Of a stretch of DNA of 64,000 nucleotides, positions 274-35,400 are shown piece by piece (the stretch's first letter is position 1; the number at the start of each line of letters is the position of its first letter). This DNA comes from Sphyrna mokarran. Lineage: Eukaryota. A program made the position numbers and the translations under genes. The notes beneath the pieces were generated by a model, which ran no database searches, was not told the DNA's origin, and saw only the letters and a list, made by a program, of their open reading frames with translations. The DNA lies in NCBI GenBank assembly GCA_024679065.1, contig JAGIQG010000043.1, positions 2,790,001-2,854,000 on the forward strand. Direction: 5' to 3'.

Positions 274-318
274 TTAAAGTTTTGGATCCTCGTTAAAGGC
301 CAAGCGAGCATAAAGCGT
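274..318 (-). CDS. Gene A terminal exon ([14 protein letters not shown]), ITSM/ITIM-like motif
   Basis: Acceptor cacttttcatccacAG, phase 0 matching the previous exon; paralogue 54574-54618 differs by four synonymous changes and one L/F change. Confidence 0.8.
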   Translation of the reverse strand, partial: TLYARLAFNEDPKL

Positions 319-3300
319 CTGTGGATGAAAAGTGATATGTTAGCGTGATACACAGCTTTATTATAGAGACAGGTGAGACCACTGAATACCCCCAATCTTC
401 CGCCTACCCCCACTTTATTCAATCGGTTCACGGCTGTAAGGTTACTCAACTCACAGTCACCTATCAATATTGAATAATATTAATTGAATTAATCCACTCC
501 CTAATATAAATCTATCTGTCGCGCCTTTGGGAGTTCCAATTGCCCAATATTCTGTATAGCTTTTTAGTGACAAGAATTCGCCCCGCGTTCTGTGCAGAAG
601 TGTTTCGAGTTGATTCATTACTGTCACATGTTAGTATGCATTGAAATATAATGATTCTAGCCTAGTACACAGATAATGTGTACCGTGCATGGAGAATGAA
701 AGGAGAAGGTGCATATTGTAGAGTTACGGTGATAGGTAGGCTATAGAGAAAGTTCAACTTAATATGAGGTAGGTCAATTCTAATGTCTGATGGCATCAGC
801 GAAGAAGCTGTCCTTGCGTGACCTCAGAATTATATATTTTTTTCCTGAAGGAAGAAGGTGGAAAAAAACATATTCAAGGTGCTTTGGGTCCTTGATAATG
901 GTGGCTGTTTTGATAGAAACATAGAAGATACCAGCAGGGAGAGGTCATTTGGCCCTTTGAGTCTGCTCCAGCATTCATTATAATCATGACTGATCGTCCA
1001 GCCCAATCGTCTAATCCTAATTTCTCCCCATAACCTTCGCTCCCAATTGCTATATCCAGCCGCCCGTTGAATACATTCAATATTTTGGCATCGGCTACTT
1101 CCCGTGGTAATGAATTCCACAGGCTCACTGAGTGAAGAAATATCTCGTAACTTCCGTCCTAAATGGTCTGTCCCAAAACCTCAAACAGTGACCCCTGCTT
1201 CTGGACTCCCTCCACTATCGGGAACATCCTTCCTGTATCTACCCTGTTTAGCCCTGTTAGAATTTTATAGGTCTCTGTGAAATCCCCCCCTCATTCGTCT
1301 GAACTGCAGTGAAAGCCGCAGCATCATGTTGCAGCTGTACAAAACTCTAGTGCGGCCGCACTTGGAGTATTGTGTGCAGTTCTGGTCGCCACATTATAAG
1401 AAAGATGTGGAGGCATTGGAGAGGTACAGAGGAGGTTTACCAGGATGTTGCCTGGTATGGAGGGCAGGTCCTATGAAGAGAGGTTGAAGGATTTGAGGTT
1501 GTTTTCGTTAGAAAGGAGGCGGCTAAGAGGGGATCTTATTGAAGCATATAAGATGATTAGAGGTTTAGATAGGGTGGACAGTGATAGCCTTTTCCTAGGA
1601 TGGAGAAAGCTAGCACGAGGGGACACAGCTTTAAATTAAGGGGTATGAGTTATAGGACGGATATCATAGGTAGGTTCTTTACTCAAAGAGTGATTAGGGA
1701 GTGGAATGCCCTGCCTGCAGCTGTTGTAGATGCGCCAAGTTTGTGGCGTTTAAGAGGTTAATTGATAAGTATATGGAAGAGAAGGGAATGGTTTAGTTTG
1801 GAGGGGCATTGCTTTTTATTTTGGTCGGCACAACATCGAAGGCCGAAGGGCCTGTTCTGTGCTGTATTGTTCTATGTTCTAAAACAATTTTAACCTTGTC
1901 AATCTCTCCTCATACATCAATCCCGCGATTCCTGGAATGAGCCTGGTAAACTTTCGCTGCACTCCCTCCAGAGCCAGAAAATCCTTCCAAAGTGAATGCA
2001 TTTGGTATGTCTCCTGGTCTGTCCAAGACTACAAGAACTGGTCTCGTCCCATTATTCAAACTAGCCTCGTCTCTATTGACTCTGTCCTCACGTCCTGTTG
2101 CCTCGGGGAAAAACAGCCAACAGAATCACGGACTCCCCTCCCCCACGCACTCCGGACATTCTGTCTTCCACCTTCTTCCGTCGGGAAAAAGATACAAAAC
2201 TCTGAGGTCAGGTACCAACCTACTCAAGAACAGGTTCTTCCCTGCTGCTGTCAGACTTCTGAATGGATCTAACTCTCACTGAGTTGATCTTTCTCTGTAC
2301 CCGAGGTATGACTGTAGCACTATATTCTCCACTCTTTCCTTCCCAATGAACGGTATGCCTTCTCTGTATAGTGCGCAAGAAACAATACTTTTCACTGTAT
2401 CCCAATACATGTGGCAATAATAAACCGAACCTATGTACTCAATGAATGATGTACTTTGCCTGTACAGCGCTCAAGGAATAATATTTTTCACTGTATCCCA
2501 ATACATGGGACAATAATAAATCCAATCTATGTACTCTGTGAACGATATGCTTTGTGAGTATAGTGTGCAAAAACAATACTTTTCACTGTATCCCAATACA
2601 GGGATTTGAGGTTATTTTCGTTAGAAAGGAGGCGGCTAAGAGGGGACCTAATCGAAACATATAAGATGATTAGAGGTTTAGATAGGGTGGACAGTGATAG
2701 CTTTTTTCCTAGGATGGAGAAAGCTAGCACGAGGGGACACAGCTTTAAATTAAGGGGTATGAGTTATAGGACGGATATCAGAGGTAGGTTCTTTACTCAA
2801 AGAGTGATTAGGGAGTGGAATGCCCTGCCTGCAGCTGTTGTAGATGCGCCAAGTTTGTGGCGTTTAAGAGGTTAATTGATAAGTATATGGAAGAGAAGGG
2901 AATGGTTTAGTTTGGAGGGGCATTACTTTTTATATTGGTCGGCGCAACATCGAAGGCCGAAGGGCCTGTTCTGTGCTGTAGTGTTCTATGTTCTATGTTC
3001 TAATCATTAATCAAATGTACTGTACTCTACGAACAGAATGCTTTGTCTGTGTAGCGCGAAAGAAACAATTCTTTTCACTGTATCCCAATACACGTGACAA
3101 TAATAAATCAAATCAAATCAAATCAAATCAAATGTTCCACGAATGAATTAAACAAAAAAGCTAACTTGAAAGAAATTATTCGGCCTCGAAGCTGTCCCTG
3201 TCCATGGAAGCCACCAGGTTTGTCGAGGTTTTCGAGAATTTTCCGTGTTAGTAATGAATTCTAAACCGCGGATTAATAATTAATGAAAAGTATCAGTGTG

Positions 3301-6300
3301 GTATATTAAAAAAATAATTCCATTCACTCACCTCTTTATTCTGTTTGTGTTCTCTGGATTCTCTCAGTTCCTCATCACTGTTCGCGGTTCCTGTTAGAAA
3401 GGGGGATTTAAACTGAAATTTAAATGAATTAATTTCACACTGAACCCGCTCAAAAGTGTCAATATCTCGGAAATAGATGTTTGGATTGAGAGCGCCGCGG
3501 GTAACAGATTCCCCCAACAATCACTACCTCTCTGCCGGTTCCTGCATATCCTTCTTCCGGCCGCAAGGATCAATCCCAGAAGGAGAAGTGCCGCAGCCGA
3601 CAAACCCCCGGAAAACAATAAATGACAGGTGGGCGAGAACGGAGAATCTGCAAAAAAGCATTGAACTTTCAGTCAACGGAAATCAAGTGTGGAAATAATT
3701 AAACAAACAAGGATCTTGTTCAATCTAACTGTCCAATTCGACCGGAAAATGGTAAAACATTTGTACACTTTCCCTACCATGTAATAGAGTCGCACATTTA
3801 CAATAGAACGCAAGGCCAGGCAAAGAGAGATACTGACAGAGAGACTGAGGACATTTTGAATAGAGCACACAGAGAGATGGAGGGAGAGAGTGGAAGATTC
3901 AGGCAGAGAATAATCATGTCATCCCAGAGTGCAGCGGAAGACCATTCGGGCCATCGAGTCTGCACCACCCTATCCCCGTCACCTCACGTATTTACTCTGC
4001 TAATCCTCCTGACTCTCGGCTCAATTTAGCATGGCCAATCCACTTATCCCGCACACTTTGGGCACTAAGGGGCAATTTAGTATGGCCAATCCACTTAACC
4101 CGCGTATCTTTGGACACTAAAGGGCAATTTGTCATAGCTAATCTAACTAACCTACATACCTTCGATACTAAGGGGCAATTCACCATGCTTATCCACCTAA
4201 GTTACACATCTTTTGACATTAAGGACAATCTACCATAGTTGATCCACCTAGCCTTCACACCGTTTGACATCAAGGAGCAATTTAACGTAGCTGGTCCACT
4301 TAACCTACACACCCGTTGACACTAAGGGGCATGTACCATGGCTGATCCACCTAACCGACACATTCTTTGGCACTAAGGGCCAATTTAGCATGGCCAATCC
4401 ACCTAACCCTCACATCTTTGGACACAAAGGGGCAAATTAGCATGGCCAATCCACTTATCCCGCACATCTTTGGACACTAAGGGGCAATACAGCATAGCCA
4501 ATCCACTTAACCCGCATATCTTTGGACACTAAGGGGCCATTTGGCATGGCCAATCCACCTAACCTGCACATCTTTGGAATTTGTGGGACAACAGCAGCAC
4601 CCGTGGGAAGGCCAATGTAATTGAATGGGATTGAAGTACAGGGAGGCGAAGGGATGAATAAATGGTTCACTGCTGTGCTGAGATAGAGAGCGACACTCGA
4701 AATATAATCACACGTTTCAATTTTACACACTGACAGATTGGTCCCTGACCTTCGGATGCGCCATGTTGTCTTAGCCAGATACAAGAAGGGGAAGAGGATA
4801 AGAGGCCATTCGTCCTATCTCATCTATTCTGCCATCCAACATCACCATCCCTCACCATGTACATAAACTTCACTTCTCCGCTCTTCTCTTACTCATTAAT
4901 CGATCCGCTCTCACAGCTGTGTTTCAGTGATTGAACATCCATGGTTCACAACGATAGCAAAGAAGAGGCAAAATATCAGAAAATGAAACGGGGAGGATTA
5001 TGATAGGACAGTGCTGATTTAGATATTCATGGATGCCCGCAGAGACATTTGTAATTTACAAAGTTAGGCTGCTTTTAGTAAAGTGTCTCGTTATTATTAA
5101 ATGGATTGAAAAATAGTCATTGTGAATAGCTACCTTTCTGAGATGAGAAACTGTCACTGAGAATACTGTCAGTGGAGTTGACCCTAACGGCGCAGGTACA
5201 GCGAGCACCGCTTCTCCAAGTTTCCGCCGAGAGGCTGATATAACTCCTGACGGTGTAGGTCCCGTCCGGCTCCAGTGACCCTGAATCGGTCTGTCCCTCG
5301 GTATCCCGCCCCGAAACATTCCAGCGGACAGGAAAGGAATCGGGAGACACACCTCTGACCAGGCACATCAATGGGACCCTTTCCATGGCGGGAATCTCAT
5401 CCAGAGGCGGAGTGAGGAGGAATATGGAGGGAGAACCCGCTAAATCCAGCAAATGAAACGGAGAACACTCATTAATTGGTAGAACAGGACACTTTACTTG
5501 CTCTGAGATACCCACTGCAACAGAATATTAATGAGATTTACCTGTAATCACTAATTTGGAGCCATTTCCGAATATTTGGGTCATGTTCTGATAAATGCGC
5601 TTTGCACAGTAATACATCCCAGAGTCATTTATTCGGGAATCCGTAATTATTAGTGAATAAAGACGCCCATTTTCAGAAATCTGGCTGGAAAATCTCCCGT
5701 CAGCTTGGCTGTTCTTGTATGCTCTGTAAACGAAATCCATGCCGTTTCTCCCCCTCTGTCTGTACCAGTAGACATAGCCAACAGCTTGACCCTGGATGCG
5801 GCAGCTGAGATTAACAGGACTCCCCGCGGGGAGTGTCTGAACCGGCGGAAACTGGGACACGGTGACCTGAGACACTGTAACTGGGAAAGAGAAACGGAGA
5901 GCACAACAGTCACCACAGGTAATGGAGCATTCCCTGAATCCCTACAGTGCAGAAAGGGGCCAGTTGGTCCATCGAGTTTGCACTGATCACAATCCCTCCT
6001 ATCCGTATTCCGGCAATATTTTCACTGCTAATCCCTGTTACCAAGGGGCAATATAGAACAAAGGTCAAAGAACAAAACAGCACGGGAAACAGAACCTTTG
6101 GCCCAACAAGCCGCGCCGCCACTCCGATGTTTCCACTTCTACCCGTTATCCCTGTCTTTGTTTATAGATCTATGGATTAAAAACCAAATGTGAGACAATT
6201 TAGGGAGAATTTGTTTTGCCAATCCCTTGTTAGACAAGTTAGACCAAATCACCCGTAGGATAAAAACAAGCACATCAATATCATCATCTATTTACACACT

Positions 6301-7484
6301 TCCCAGGGACTCCCAAGGCTCATGATCCCTATTTTAAATCAGTTTTCTATACCCCTACATTCCCATTCTGTTCATGTGCCCATGTAAGGTTCTCTTAAAT
6401 AACTCCAGAGTGCCTGCCTCCACCACTTTACTTGGCAGCGCATTCCATACCCCCACCACCCTCTGTGTGAAAAAAAGCTCCCTCGAGCATCCAAATTATA
6501 CGTTACCCCACTTACCCTTTTCCCGTGACCCCTCGTGCTATTCGAGTCCATCCTAGGAAAAAAACTTAACTCTGTTTACTGTATCTATACCTCTCATAAT
6601 CTTGCACACCTCTATTAGATCTCCTCTAAGTCTATAGCGTGGCCATTCAAACTAACTCACGCATCTTTGGACTTTTGGGGGAAGAGGAGCACTCGGAGGA
6701 AACCCACGCAGACACGGGGAGAACGTGCAACTTCTGCACGGGAATCCAAGCCTGGCGCTGTGCTGTGGCAATGTTAACCCACCGCTGAGATGTTCCAGCA
6801 CTTCCTAATTTTGCTTCGAGTCTTCTCCTCCTCAGTTGACTTTGGGAGCTAAAGTCTGTTCAGAAATTTATAACTGACTCTGAAGTTCTACTTGAAAATC
6901 TTTCTCTTTCATGTCGCCAATATTGTTAAGGAAGCCCATTCACACAACATAGCTCAGGAGAAATGGAAAATCAGATTAATTCCGTTCTAATCATTGTTAT
7001 GAATCGACCTTGCATTTTCTCAGTAACATTTGATTCATTGTTAAGTAAAACTTGCACGCTAAATCACAACTTATAGCACTGCTGAAGCGCGGGGTGAGAG
7101 GACCTTCGGCCCTTCCAATTTGTGTTGAACTTGTGAAAGATGTCACTAATATTATTGAATTTCACCCCTTTATATTTGTATTCAGTTCGCCCATTTTGAA
7201 AGTTCCGTTTCACCCGTTTGAAAGTTCCTGTTGGATCTGCTTCCTCCACCCCTTGAGGCAAAACCTTCCAGATCACAACAGGTCAGATGGGTTAAAAAAA
7301 ATCCCCTAATCTCCCTCTCTACTTTTACCAAATTCATATTCCCTTGGTTTCCAGAAACTCCTGCCAACAGAATCAATTTCTGCCTCTTCGCTCTATCCAA
7401 ATCCTTCTCCACTCTATCTGAATATAATGAGGATATCTCACCCTGGAAGAGATGGAACAATGCACAGATACCGAGGAAACCCAT
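274..7484 (-). CDS. Gene A: non-rearranging VJ-C1-TM-cytoplasmic IgSF receptor (type 1), 6 exons, ~303 aa, intact
   Basis: Exons 7442-7484, 5542-5880, 5134-5439, 3528-3647, 3332-3390 and 274-318 all have GT-AG boundaries. Intron phases are 1,1,1,1,0 and the total is 912 nt with no internal stop. Every exon recurs at identical length in paralogue B. Confidence 0.85.
1315..1880 (+). mobile_element. CR1-type LINE 3' fragment nested in an older minus-strand CR1 remnant
   Basis: [32 protein letters not shown]2 C-terminus and ttctatg tail; the site is empty in copy 2 (~55590). Confidence 0.9.
2600..3001 (+). mobile_element. CR1-type LINE 3' fragment
   Basis: [19 protein letters not shown] and (ttctatg)n tail; absent from copy 2. 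Confidence 0.9.
3332..3390 (-). CDS. Gene A cytoplasmic exon 1 ([20 protein letters not shown])
   Basis: Acceptor ccccctttctaacAG, donor GAG|GTGAGT; identical peptide at 56659-56717. Confidence 0.8.
3528..3647 (-). CDS. Gene A stalk/transmembrane exon ([40 protein letters not shown])
   Basis: Acceptor cttttttgcAG, 120 bp, uncharged hydrophobic run followed by basic stop-transfer residues; conserved at 56857-56976. Confidence 0.85.
3915..4590 (-). repeat. HE1-like SINE with expanded ~51-bp internal minisatellite (about 11 units)
   Basis: Unit catggccaatccacctaacccgcacatctttggacactaaggggcaatttag; related arrays at ~9480-9700, 18140-18540, 34760-34980, 57350-57750 and 63060-63320. Confidence 0.8.
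5134..5439 (-). CDS. Gene A C1-set Ig domain exon
   Basis: Motifs [36 protein letters not shown]; 306 bp, phase 1/1; 102-bp intron from V. Confidence 0.95.
5542..5880 (-). CDS. Gene A germline-joined VJ exon (V-set Ig domain with FGNG J motif)
   Basis: Acceptor tttctctttcccAG; motifs LSC, WYRQ, DSGMYYC and [10 protein letters not shown] in one exon; donor G|GTAAAT. Confidence 0.95.
7442..7484 (-). CDS. Gene A leader exon ([14 protein letters not shown])
   Basis: ATG at 7484, hydrophobic stretch, CAG G|GTGAGA phase-1 donor; conserved at 61313-61355. Confidence 0.85.
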
Positions 7485-29262: not shown

Positions 29263-29485
29263 TCATTTCCCGATCTTCTTTTTTGACCTTTTTTCCAATG
29301 CAGCCAAATCCAGGGAGGCGTAGAGAGGTCCACCCTGAGACTGGGAAATATATTCAACAGAAATGATTAAAATAAAGGACTGTTTCCAAAAATTCATTTC
29401 AATGTATTTTATTATAATGGGTTCAATGCACTCACCTGTATTCTATGTTGCGTTTTCAAGTTCGCCTCTGTTTGACCGTGATCCC
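29263..29485 (-). CDS. Gene C last exons 29436-29485 (GDHGQTEANLKTQHRIQ) and 29263-29334 (GGPLYASLDLAALEKRSKKKIGK*)
   Basis: CAG|GTGAGT donor; phase-0 terminal exon beginning near a YASL motif, the same layout as genes A and B. Confidence 0.78.
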
Positions 29486-32400
29486 CTGTGCGTTAAGAGT
29501 TAAACTATGAATTGAAACGTCACACAAGCTATAGAATCTTTAAGGACATAGAAATATCGGTCGCCAATGACCATTGTATGTCAACAGTTTGAAGGCTACT
29601 TAATAGAGTCACAAGTAGGCTTACATTAACTCTGCAAGGAAGATACTGTAAAAATTTCCTCCTTGCCACATCCTGGCAGTTGTTTTCCTGTTCTGAGGGA
29701 GAATTTAGCATCGCCAACTCACCTGAGTAGCACATCGTTTGGACTCTGGGAAGAGCACACGGAAGGAACACACGCAAACACAGGGAGAACACGTAAACTC
29801 GCCATAGACAGATACCCAAGCCAGGAATCGAACAAAGGTCCCTGATGTTGCGGGAGTGCAGTGCGAACCACTGTGCCACCGTGCCGCTGCTTTAGGTTGC
29901 TAGGCTACAATCATTAACACACAGCCCACCTAAATTTTGTCAACACGACAGATATTCCACAATTCTTCAGAGGCAGTTAGATATGACATTGTTGGTGAAG
30001 TCGATAGGATTGCATTCACTGGGGTTTAGAAGTGTGAGAGGGAACTTCCAGGAACCTTATAAAATTCTGATAGGATTCGATAGGACAGATTGAAGATCAA
30101 TGTTCCCGATGGTTAAGGAGTCCAGAACGAGGGATAATAGTTTGAGGTTACTGGGGAATCCTTTTAGAACTAAGGTGAGGAGAAATGTTTTCACCCAGAG
30201 GGTGGTGAATACACGGATTCATTACCACAGAATATAGTTGAGGCCAAAACATGATGTAATTTCAGGAAGAAATTAGATATACGTCTTGGGACTAAAGGAA
30301 TCAAATGGTATGAGGGGATGTAGGATCAGGATGTTGAGTTTGATTATCTGCTGTGGTCAAAATGAACAGCAGAGCAGGTTCAAAGGTCCGAATGGCATAT
30401 TCCTCCTTCTAGTTTCTGTGTTAACAAATGTAGACAAACAAGTGGCAATTAACAGTTAACTGTTGCATCCTCCATAAAAGAGGCTGCAACGAATCAGTCT
30501 TTTTGCTAATCCCGGAAACAGTCTTCTCAGGAAGAAAGCATAATTGTTTCCATCACATATGTTATTCTTGTGTTGTTTTGTGCCAATGAATACAAGGTCA
30601 AAAGCCTCGATAATAGGATTTTGTTTGACAAAGTTTAAGTACTCCATTTATTGAAATTTTCTTTCAATCATGTCTCTACAGTTAACTGTCAGTACCAATC
30701 AACTGGTGCACTCATCATGAAGTCATAGTTCGTGTAGGGACACATGATGTAGGTAGAACAAGGGAAGGGGATATTAAACAGAAATTTATGGAGTTGGGGT
30801 GGAACCTTAGGACCAAAACAGACAGAGTGGTTACCTCTGGACTCTTTCCTGTGCCACGGGGTAGTTTAGAGAAGAACAGAGAGAGGGAATGTTTGAACTC
30901 GTGGCTGCGGGAATGGTGCAGGAGGGAGAGGTTCAGGTTCCTGAACAATTGGGACTCAATCTGGGATAGAGGTTAGTAGATAAGTTTATGGACGAAATGG
31001 GAATGGTTTAGGTGAGAGGGTCATTGCTTTTTCCTAATTGGTCGGCGCAGCAGAACAGGCCGAAGGGCCTGTTCTGCGCTGTAATGTTCTATGTTCATAG
31101 CAACACTTCACCAATCAATTTCCACTTCATTGTTTTTTTAATTCTGACATTTAATCGCTGCCAACATTCCAATGAAACTTACCCATTTGTCGCTCCTTAT
31201 GTCCGTCTCGCTGCCTTCTCTGGCTCAAGCTAAAATTGGATATGGGAAAAGAACATCAAACAAATGTTATATCTGGCCTATCACATCTCAGATGCTGCAC
31301 ATTGTTGAAAGTAGAATTGTCTCGAGATCTTATATAAATCATCGAAAATAGAGGAACACATCGTGGAATCAGTTTTCGGATTGAAATAGGTCTGACAAAA
31401 TATAAGATAGAGAAAGAGGGGACAATGAACAATGTTAAACTTTGCACACTGTTCTCTTACTCACGTGTCATTCCGGGATCCTATTTCTCTGTCTTCTAAA
31501 ATAGAAGAATATATGATTAGCTAATTAAAAACTGCAAAGAGGAAATCATATTGAGGAAAAAAAAAGAAATTAAAGTGTTTCAGATAACCATTAATTTTCA
31601 CCTGATCTGCAGTGTTTACAAATCCAAATGGAAATAAGGACCGATAGCAGAATCAATATGACCAGGACACTGACTCGTACAGGAACCGTCTCTCCGCACC
31701 ATTCTATAGAGAAAAAGAACACTTAGAAACTGCCACCGGTCAAATCAGTCTTCTCCGGGGTTCTCTAACCAAATTAAAAATGCAGAGTCACCAAAATAGG
31801 GGGTGGATGTGGAAAATGAAACATTGCTGGTGGGAAAGAGAGTGGAGAGTGAACACACAGAATGGAATTGATGAGACAATATTTGCTTGTGGAGATCGAT
31901 TAAATGACAGCACTGTCAGAGTTGTCCTAAATTCACAGTGTATCAGATTGTTTTAGACCATAAGATCAGGAGACACAGGATCAGAACTAGGTTACTCGGC
32001 CCATGAGTCTGCACCACCATTCCATCATGGCTGATATATTTCTCACCCCCATTCTCTTGCCTTTCCCCATACCTTACCAGGACGTTGCCTGGTATGGAGG
32101 GCAGGTCTTATGAAGAGAGGCTGAGGGATTTGAGGTTGTTTTCGTTCGAAAGGAGGTGGCTAAGTGGGGACCTTATCGAAACATATAAGATGATTAGAGG
32201 TTTAGATAGGGTGGACAGTGATAGTCTTTTTTCCAGGATGGAGAAAGCTAGCACGAGGGGACACAGCTTTAAATTAAGGGGTGATAGTTATAGGACGGAT
32301 ATCAGAGGTAGGTCCTTTACCCAAAGTGTGGTTCGGGAGTGGAATGCCCTGCCTGCGGCAGTTGTAGATGCACCAAGTTTGGTGGCGTTTAAGAGGTTAA

Positions 32401-35400
32401 TTGATAAGTATATGGAAGAGAAGGGAATGGTTTAGTTTGGAGGGTATTGCTTTTTATATTGGTCGGCAATATAAAGGCCGAAGGGCCTGTTCTGTGCTGT
32501 AATGTTCTATGTTCTATGTTCTATAACCCTGATCCCCTTATTAATCAAGAAACTATCTATCTTTGTCTTAAAGATACTCAATGAGCTGGTTTCTTCAGCC
32601 TTCAGCGGCAAAGAGCTCCAGTGATTCACCACTCTCTGCTGATTCCTTCTCATCTCTGTTTTAGAGGATCCCAACACATGAGACAATAATAAATGAAACC
32701 AACTCATAGAGTCATAGAATCATTGAGTTTACAGAATGGAAACAGGCCCTTCGGCCCATTTTTTCCACGCTATCTTTTTTATTAAATCTCTAAGCGAGTC
32801 CCAGTTGCTCACATGTGGCCCATCTCCCTCTATATTCTTCGTACGCATGTAACTATCTAAATGTATTTTTCCAAGATAAAATTGTACCCCACTCTAATAC
32901 TATCTCTAGCAGCTTGTTCCAGACAATCACCACCCTCTGTTTGACAAAATTGTCCCCCTGGATGCATTTGTATATGTTCCCTGTCATCTAAAACCTATGC
33001 CCTCAATTTTTTGACTCCCCTATCTTTGGGAAAATATATTGACTATTTACCGGACCAGTGTCCCCTCATTATTTAACAGACTTCTCTGAAGTGACCACTC
33101 AGCCCCCTACGCTCCAGTAAAAAAAAAGTCCCAGTCTACCCAGCCTTTCCTTATAACTCAATCCATCAAGTCCCAGTAACATCCTACTGAATCTTTTCTG
33201 CACTCTTTTTAGTTTAGTCTATGTACTCTAAGAAAGATATGTTTGACATTTATTGCGTGCAGGAAACAATAATTTTCACAGTATCACAAATGTATGTGAC
33301 AACAATAAATCAAATCAAATCTATATAATCCTTGAACTGTATTCTTTATCTTTCAAACGCACGAGAAATAACACTTCCTGCATTATCCCAATACATGTGA
33401 CAATAATAAATCAAACCAAGTCAAATCAAGTTAATGGGGACTGATATTTAACTGTCTTTCATGCCGTCATTGTTACTTTTTCCAATTTATTTAAATTGAT
33501 GCCCTCCTGGTTCTCGGCCCTTTCCGCCTTTGTGAATCGGTTCATCTTCGTTGCTCTGTCCAGACAATTCAGGATTATAAACACATTTCTCACATCTCCT
33601 CTTAACCTTCAGCTATTACAGGGAACTAACTCTTGCTTTTCCACTCCATCCAGTTGACTGAAGTGCCTCATTTTTATGACCATTTAGTGAATAGTTATTT
33701 TTTCTCTGCACTCTCTTCATATTCATTATAAATTGCGTTGCCAGTAACTGTTCACAATTAAGACAGAATCAGAATCCTGCGAAATGTTGCTGTTCATTTG
33801 AGGTGTTATTGTTGTCATATCTGTTGATATGTAATGAAACATATTGTTTCTTGCACTCTAAACATACAACACATATATTTCACAACGTACATTGATTTGA
33901 TTTGATGTGGTTTGATTTATTCTTGTCACACCTATTGGGATACAGTGAAAAAAACATTCTCTCTTGCACGCTACACAGACAAGACATACCGTTCATAGAT
34001 TACATAGGGGAGAAATAAATGTGAGGATGCAGAATATATTGTCCCCTTCACAACTCGGGTGCAGTGAAAGATCAGTTTGATATAAGGTAAAAGCAAAATA
34101 CTGCGGATCCTGGAACCTGAAAGAAATATAGAAAAAACTGGAAGATCTCAGCAGGTCTGACAGCGTCTGAGGGGACAGAATAGAGCCAACGTTTCGAGTC
34201 TAGATAACTTTTCGAGGGAGCTTTGAAGAAGGATCGTCTAGACTCGGAATGTTGGCTCAAATCTCTACCCACAGATGCTGTCAGAACTTCTGAGATTTTC
34301 CAGCATTTTCTGGTTTGGTATAACGACTTAAGGCAGCAAGGGAGAAGCTGCTCTTCCGTCTGTTTGTACGTGATTTCAAACTTTGGTATCATTTCCCCGA
34401 TGAAAGAAGGTAGAAGAGATAATGTCCGGGCTGAGTGGAGTCCTTGATTATGTTGACAGCTTCTCTAAGCCAGTGAGAAGTGTAGATTTACTTCACTCCT
34501 TTTCGATTCTGTGACTCGATTTCGACCATCTGGATCCTCTATGTTTTCCTAACAGCCTGACTTCTCCAATGATTTGGAGGTGGCAGCATAGTGGTACACT
34601 GTTTCGCAGTGTTGTCTCACAGGGCCAGGGAACCTCGTTCGATTCCTGCCTTGGGTGCCTGTCTCTGTGGAGTTAACACATTTCCCCCTCTCTCTATATG
34701 ACTTTCCTTCGGCTGCTCTGCTTTCCTCCCACAGTCCAAAAATGGACAAGTTAGTTGAATTGCCCCTTAGTGTCCATCAATGTGTGGTTTCGTTGGGTTG
34801 GCCAAGCTAAATTACCCCTTAGTGTGCAGCAATGTGCCGATTAGTTGGATTGGCCATTCTAAATTGCCCCTTAGTGTCCAGCAATGCGTGGTTTGGAATG
34901 ATTGGCCACGCTAAATTGCCCTGTAGTTGTTCAGAATGTGCATATTGGATGGATTTGCCATGCTAAACTGCCCCTTAGCATCCCAAGGTGCGTCGGTTTT
35001 AGGGGGATTCGCGGCTCAGTACGGGGGTTACGGGAATGGGGCTTGGGTAAGAAGAGTCAGTGAGGACTTGATGAGGTAAATGTCCTCCTTCTTCATTTAG
35101 GATTGTATGATTTCAATAGATTTACGGTCAGGTAATTATTTTCCGAGAGATGAAAGAGTTGGAATCGTTTCCAACAATCCAAATTCAACATTTGCTCTTA
35201 ATTCATATAAAAGAGAAACAATGGGAAGAGCTCATCCAGTCAATCCCTAGAGCGTACTGCCAAATGATCATGGGGGATTAATAATGATTTATAATGTTAC
35301 TGACATGAGGATGGAAAATTTAAATATAACTGTTATGTGAGGAGGTAGATATAGATTGATTAATAGCCTTCCTGGAGCAAAGTGAGGTAAATTAATTCAC

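Follow-up and report, generated by a model that had tools for sequence, protein, structure and literature searches.

The stretch analysed here, hereafter the window, comprises 64,000 nucleotides from contig JAGIQG010000043.1 of Sphyrna mokarran. It raises the question of whether 45 bases close to its start, at 318-274 on the minus strand, are the last coding exon of a receptor gene and, if so, which signal their tyrosine motif would carry. An initial annotation had proposed such an exon, with a switch-type motif under purifying selection, in a receptor that signals by itself. It should be noted that any list of open reading frames would miss a stretch as short as 14 codons.

Gene A and its last exon

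The gene to which these bases belong, gene A, lies on the minus strand and has the order leader-VJ-C1-transmembrane-tail, in one open frame of 303 amino acids with GT-AG at all five introns. The leader exon (7442..7484, 43 nt), which was scored against database leaders, is followed by a V exon containing the J motif FGNGS (5542..5880, 339 nt; Pfam V-set, E 4e-15), a C1-set exon (5134..5439; Pfam C1-set, E 1e-10), an exon for a stalk with one cysteine and an uncharged transmembrane (TM) segment (3528..3647), and a cytoplasmic exon of 59 nt (3332..3390, phase 1 to 0), all on the minus strand. The best PDB matches of the V domain were an scFv and a TCR-alpha V. V and J share one exon without an RSS, which makes the gene non-rearranging and sets it apart from the rearranging segments of TCR genes; an RSS scan of the window gave two loose RSS-like matches, neither of them adjoining a V exon.

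The TM segment of gene A is free of charge, as the initial annotation had read it. Among homologues of this gene type (type 1) the TM core is charged in one of 29, and among those of a second type described below (type 2) in none of nine; the stalk cysteine is kept in 49/49 homologues. Since the TM segment is uncharged, CD3 coupling of gene A is unlikely, and the uncharged core of 28 of the 29 type 1 homologues would argue against coupling to either CD3 or FcR-gamma. This supports the proposal that the receptor signals through its own tail rather than through CD3.

The 59-nt exon stops at phase 0 before GTGAGT, so that its junction with 318-274 is in frame and the open frame continues. The 45 nt encode the motif TLYARLAF, six further codons and TAA, and they are preceded by an acceptor region (319..345, minus strand) with a CTAAC branch-point-like site, a pyrimidine tract and CAG. 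The tyrosine is placed approximately 30 residues from the membrane and close to the C-terminus. When the 59-nt exon is skipped, the terminal exon is read out of frame and the motif is lost. The 3' UTR extends beyond the window start, with ATTAAA at 285 and 524 nt 3' of the stop.

The same two exons are joined in database models from Mustelus, Cetorhinus, Heterodontus, catsharks, whale shark, sawshark, skates and rays, under Ig-like or uncharacterised names. Taken together, the branch site, the AG acceptor, the phase, the paralogues and these shark and ray models bear out the 45-bp terminal exon, and 318-274 probably serves as the final coding exon, joined by splicing, of a V-J/C1 membrane receptor that does not rearrange. 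As an alternative, the initial annotation had pointed to a weak acceptor at 3261. An AG at this site would open 45 tyrosine-free codons in gene A; its pattern was matched in 15 of 28 copies (some variants were missed by the pattern), and nine of these 15 stop within two codons. The acceptor at 318 is conserved and that at 3261 is not. Both the 3261 acceptor and intron read-through were rejected as main ends of gene A, as they are unconserved across copies.

In the databases, isoforms P0003, P0016, P0011 and P0053, which belong to both gene types, skip either the 59-nt exon or the TM exon. The form without the 59-nt exon corresponds to P0003 in Mustelus, and those without the TM exon are possibly soluble.

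Selection on the tyrosine motif

The terminal exon region gave 37 matches in the genome, some of them on small contigs that resemble duplicates. The acceptor AG is retained in 38 of the 39 copies read (33 unique), and YAxL stands in frame in 33. Selection was evaluated on 19 unique genes that are open through the V, C, TM, cytoplasmic and terminal exons, with dN/dS estimated by a codon model on a fixed tree; identical duplicates and broken genes were left out, as were L027, L037 and L039, whose V and C exons lie beyond the locus stretch taken. For the whole terminal exon (14 codons) dN/dS was 0.47 (p 0.007). Codons 1-8, which hold the motif, gave 0.20 (LRT 18.4, p 1.8e-5) and codons 9-14 gave 1.6 (p 0.33, not significant); gene conversion may bias these values, and codon 8 was chosen as the boundary, following the motif, once the alignment had been viewed. 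In the other exons dN/dS was 0.70 (V), 0.53 (C), 0.80 (TM, not significant) and 0.75 (cytoplasmic, not significant). Furthermore, Y, A(+1), L(+3) and F(+5) are invariant in the 19 paralogues in spite of synonymous variation, and T(-2) is present in 18. Given the difference between codons 1-8 and 9-14, these codon estimates confirm selection on the motif and not on the entire exon. In the V exons of the same 19 genes, CDR-like positions visibly vary.

The route to the motif has been lost in three unique genes whose V, C and TM exons are intact: in L016 the acceptor AG is changed to TG, in L019/L020 a repeat is inserted in the cytoplasmic exon, and L049 carries frameshifts. The motif is therefore dispensable in some copies, and it is possible that these three are decoy receptors or young pseudogenes. 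The motif is lost in 6 of the 13 copies that are broken or orphan and in none of the 19 intact genes (Fisher p 0.002; 0.012 with duplicate orphans merged). This comparison has little weight, since an open terminal exon was itself part of the definition of "intact", L016 and L049 were omitted and L019 was counted as broken. The orphan terminal exons L036, L041 and L031, which lie with their upstream stretches at about 620-775 kb of contig C1027, have lost the tyrosine or the frame, and no type 1 V or C match was found in the 20-40 kb upstream of them.

The claim of purifying selection had been made on a comparison of gene A with copy B, a type 1 gene on the minus strand at 54574..61355. The differences between the terminal exons (that of B at 54574..54618, minus strand) are as originally listed: ACG/ACA, TAT/TAC, TTG/CTG and AAC/AAT are synonymous, and CTT/TTT changes the last residue from L to F. 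Considered alone, this pair gives a Fisher p of 0.008 and a binomial p of 0.011, for a pair picked after the data had been seen. Its synonymous divergence of 0.41 (4 of 9.7 sites) exceeds that of V, C and TM (0.13-0.17) about threefold, and its total divergence of 11% (5 of 45) is similar to that of the flanks (12.5-16%). In addition, copy B is a probable pseudogene, given an in-frame TGA in its V exon (~58880); its tail is intact and its J motif reads FGNSS. For these reasons the A/B comparison is weak as evidence of selection; its pattern would be partly luck and proves little. The claim holds for the motif codons on the basis of the 19 paralogues, but not for the last six codons, which vary freely, nor on the strength of the A/B pair.

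In other sharks and rays, YAxL lies within the last 60 residues in 40 of 47 database gene models; as YAxL was the search pattern for these models, only the other positions of the motif are informative. Among the 40, position -2 is T in 30, D in 8 (the ray lineage) and S in 2, and position +5 is always hydrophobic (F 23, I 9, V 6, L 1, Y 1). Position +2 is the most variable of the motif (R 19, Q 8, H 6, D 4, other 3). As for the seven models without the motif, P0003 and P0016 translate the last exon in the frame of the 59-nt skip and the rest end earlier or without a motif. In the bamboo shark, an unnamed T-cell marker, LOC122552491 (PMC11372145, Supplementary Data 2, row 771), has an identifier near that of the type 1 homologue LOC122552426; the locus identifier of the homologue itself was not found in the searched parts of that supplement.

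A profile search also retrieved similar V-J/C1/TM proteins from bichir, sturgeon, gar, lungfish, coelacanth, newt, caecilian, turtles and Komodo dragon. In an unrooted tree of 36 rows, a branch with values 92/85 (not starred) parts shark type 1 and one bony group from shark type 2 and the others, and a tree in which all shark rows were forced together was only narrowly rejected (AU p 0.041, the group having been named after the tree was seen). On the type 1 side, T stands at -2 in 6 of 7 motif-bearing bony proteins, some of which read TEYA; the motif-bearing bony proteins of the type 2 side have a canonical ITIM in 4/4. Seven bony rows whose tail lacks a motif stand outside this tally.

The type 2 gene and predicted signalling

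Between A and B, the window contains a type 2 gene (29263..37565, minus strand; this span excludes the leader) with an open frame and GT-AG at all introns. It consists of V-J, C1, a stalk cysteine with the TM segment, three small cytoplasmic exons and a terminal exon (29340-29263) that encodes PLYASLDL. The gene is intact and has a lysine-rich C-terminus. Its last exon gave 35 genome matches, and YxxL-(D/E)-L is found in 28 of the 30 last exons read, the other two being read out of phase; database models corroborate this tail. In sharks the residue at -2 is mostly Pro, for which reason the type 2 motif is ITIM-like and not canonical, and the two ray type 2 proteins (2/2) carry the ITIM consensus. 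Coupling to FcR-gamma through an Arg that precedes the TM segment of this gene was also considered and rejected, the core being without charge in all type 2 homologues.

Both gene types belong to a cluster of approximately 70 receptor genes and alternate along about 2.2 Mb of C1027, where the 69 V matches, 37 of type 1 (one of which later resembled a different V) and 32 of type 2, fall into 50 runs (p 0.0002). This alternation would also arise from the duplication of a two-gene cassette, without physical pairing of the products. Within the cluster there is also a different, broken V/C-like remnant (L097, G000:C1027:839243-839700). A separate head-to-head pair of a type 1 and a type 2 gene (G000:C894:2351000-2395000; L081-L084, L050) retains both motifs, is more diverged and is possibly the ancestral locus.

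Regarding the motif itself, TLYARL fits the broad ITSM consensus TxYxx(V/I/L) (PMC3958483) but not the narrow one, TxYxx(V/I) (PMC12151841, PMC8631942), since L occupies +3 in the 19 intact paralogues. From the ITIM consensus, (S/I/V/L)xYxx(I/V/L) in the latter two papers, gene A departs by its T at -2; an ITIM is present in one of the 19 paralogues (with I) and in two of the 40 homologues (with S). The residues A, L and F, found in 19/19, agree with the docking preference of SHP-1 and SHP-2 for a medium-sized non-polar residue at pY+1 and hydrophobic ones at +3 and +5. In the text available for these sources, Ala at pY+1 favours SHP-1 docking (PMC8631942), the C-SH2 domain of SHP-2 prefers Thr at pY-2, Phe at pY+5 helps both SH2 domains of SHP-2, and sharks possess SHP-2 and SHP-2L (PMC12151841). 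As T(-2), A(+1), L(+3) and F(+5) are conserved and match these preferences, an SHP-recruiting brake would be likelier than a SAP switch. Two SHP docking motifs in one tail are found in neither gene type, both of which carry a single motif per chain.

We therefore regard it as fairly probable, from sequence features, that gene A encodes an inhibitory receptor in which phosphorylated TLYARLAF would recruit SHP-2 or SHP-1, with a disulfide-linked dimer giving two phosphotyrosines. Ligand binding would cluster the receptor and a Src-family kinase would phosphorylate the tail tyrosine, upon which T(-2), A(+1), L(+3) and F(+5) would dock an SH2 domain of SHP. A dimer is proposed because each chain has one motif while SHP needs two phosphotyrosines; both gene types keep the stalk cysteine, so the second motif could be supplied by another type 1 chain or by a type 2 chain (YASL). 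For PD-1, bridging of the single ITSMs of two receptor chains by SHP-2 has been reported (PMC7078208). Skipping of the 59-nt exon may yield motif-less forms that act as decoys or signal tuners. Against this proposal, the motif misses both the strict ITIM and the narrow ITSM consensus, and one motif per chain would bind SHP-2 weakly unless dimerised: in PMC3958483, KD values were 22-29 uM for a single ITSM and 1-2 uM for the stronger tandem pairs. The idea of a receptor that signals by itself thus agrees with the uncharged TM segment and the motif in its own tail, but it may be incomplete, as type 2, with a motif of its own, is a possible partner.

More tentatively, and with the odds rather against it, the two types may form a TCR-shaped germline heterodimer in which the brake would be split between an ITSM-like site (for the C-SH2 domain of SHP-2) and an ITIM-like site (for its N-SH2 domain), a division that would predate the split of sharks and bony fishes. 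If this were true, free pairing of approximately 20 intact type 1 genes and approximately 30 type 2 V exons would give a combinatorial, non-rearranged inhibitory repertoire, and the family would be a living model of a pre-RAG antigen-receptor dimer with its own tails as signallers.

A true SLAM-like switch, in which the phosphotyrosine would bind SAP or EAT-2 where these are present and activate, leaving SHP for their absence, we consider unlikely. The motif fits the broad TxYxxV/I/L, and the third ITSM of CD244 likewise starts with TLpY (PMC3958483); T(-2) is shared by most paralogues (18/19), homologues (30/40) and type 1-side bony relatives (6/7). Furthermore, bamboo shark T cells express a sh2d1a-like (SAP) gene (PMC11372145), so that a candidate partner for the switch is present in sharks. 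However, +3 is L and not V or I in every copy, the ray lineage has D at -2 (8/40), the conserved hydrophobic +5 matches the preference reported for SHP-2 (PMC12151841), and PD-1, which also has T(-2), acts through SHP-2 (PMC12151841, PMC7078208). Of the switch motif originally proposed, the broad form stands; the narrow form, the D at -2 and the SHP-like Ala(+1) and Phe(+5) speak against it.

Slightly less likely still would be a role in sorting, in which unphosphorylated YARL, as a YxxL motif, would be bound by adaptor mu subunits for endocytosis of the receptor; this role may coexist with signalling. The location of YxxL, close to the C-terminus and approximately 30 residues from the TM segment, agrees with this role, and an Arg at +2 is favoured by AP-2, but +2 is precisely the most variable position, and the constraint on +1 Ala, -2 Thr and a hydrophobic +5 fits SH2 binding better. 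Finally, it is very improbable that transcripts of gene A end elsewhere (at 3261, by read-through or by skipping) and that the 45 bases were conserved merely as recently duplicated flank, since the tyrosine-free codons opened at 3261, the motif-less isoforms P0003 and P0016 and the flank-like divergence of the A/B exon are outweighed by the inconstancy of the 3261 AG among copies, the low dN/dS of the motif codons and the shark and ray models that end in this same exon.

Relation to known receptors

PRARP and VJC1, reportedly described by Fu et al. in 2019, are a non-rearranging pair of the IgSF. They consist of V-set and C1-set domains, a TM segment and a tail with a tyrosine motif, and the two linked types form disulfide-linked homo- or heterodimers. 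The shark genes are like them in having V and J in one exon, no RSS and a V-C1 ectodomain, as well as two linked gene types, one tyrosine motif per tail and a stalk cysteine; unlike this pair, they amount to approximately 37 + 32 V exons on one contig. In addition, PRARP is placed in the MHC in the available text of PMC10751288, whereas the shark cluster is off the MHC class I contig: the 44 class I matches all fell on C1548 and none on C1027 or C894, these being contigs and not chromosomes. An MHC class II query matched nowhere and is uninformative on linkage. No protein named PRARP appeared among the database matches retrieved. In its architecture, distribution and pairing of gene types the shark family resembles the PRARP/VJC1 pair, of which it is a putative relative.

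With TCR chains the shark genes share V-J plus C1, the stalk cysteine and the best PDB matches of V; they differ from them in the absence of RSS, the unsplit V/J, the lack of TM charge and a long tail with its own motif. NKp30/NCR3 combines one VJ domain with a charged TM segment, SLAM receptors have a V-C2 ectodomain and SIRP-alpha has two C1 domains; the shark chains differ from the first by V-J plus C1 and an uncharged TM segment, and from the second by their V-J/C1 ectodomain. Gene A shares the broad TxYxxV/I/L with the ITSMs of the SLAM family (CD244, SLAMF7), unlike whose members, with several ITSMs each, it has a single motif (PMC3958483). SIRP-alpha is similar in its V-C1-type domains and in a YAxL-x-hydrophobic motif (TYADLNL), but carries tandem motifs on one chain (PMC3958483), compared with one motif and one C1 in the shark chain. 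The ITSM of PD-1 has the consensus (T/V)EYATIx(F/Y) (PMC12151841), with which gene A has in common T(-2), A(+1), a hydrophobic +3, an aromatic +5 and an uncharged TM segment, and the bony relatives TEYA; PD-1 differs in that one chain carries both an ITIM and an ITSM and has only one V domain, compared with one motif, L at +3 and V-J plus C1 in the shark. UrIg and UrIg2 are, as the shark family, non-rearranging elasmobranch VJ genes, although UrIg2 has nine C domains (PMC12227049) and type 1 has one C1; neither ITIM nor ITSM gave a match in the accessible text of that paper. Judged by the features tested, the family would thus be none of these: not a TCR chain, UrIg, NKp30 or SIRP-alpha.

Among the literature found, PMC10751288 and PMC12227049 alone touch this topic in their accessible parts. 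The literature searched gave no description of the tails or the expansion of the shark family, and earlier papers or supplements may include shark members. Inhibitory receptors of the Ig family often carry a tyrosine motif on a short last exon. By itself the exon is ordinary, and the interest lies in the family, which is little studied and combines an antigen-receptor architecture without rearrangement, a large expansion and one SHP-type motif per chain type. If the chain types pair, this would bear on signalling by TCR/Ig precursors before CD3 coupling, and the family would be a candidate NK-like inhibitory receptor family in sharks. Automatic annotation in other sharks already includes the exon, under misleading Ig names. 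Likewise, the database entry of a caecilian relative (P0121) bears the name "programmed cell death protein 1", yet the protein belongs to the V-J/C1 group described here.
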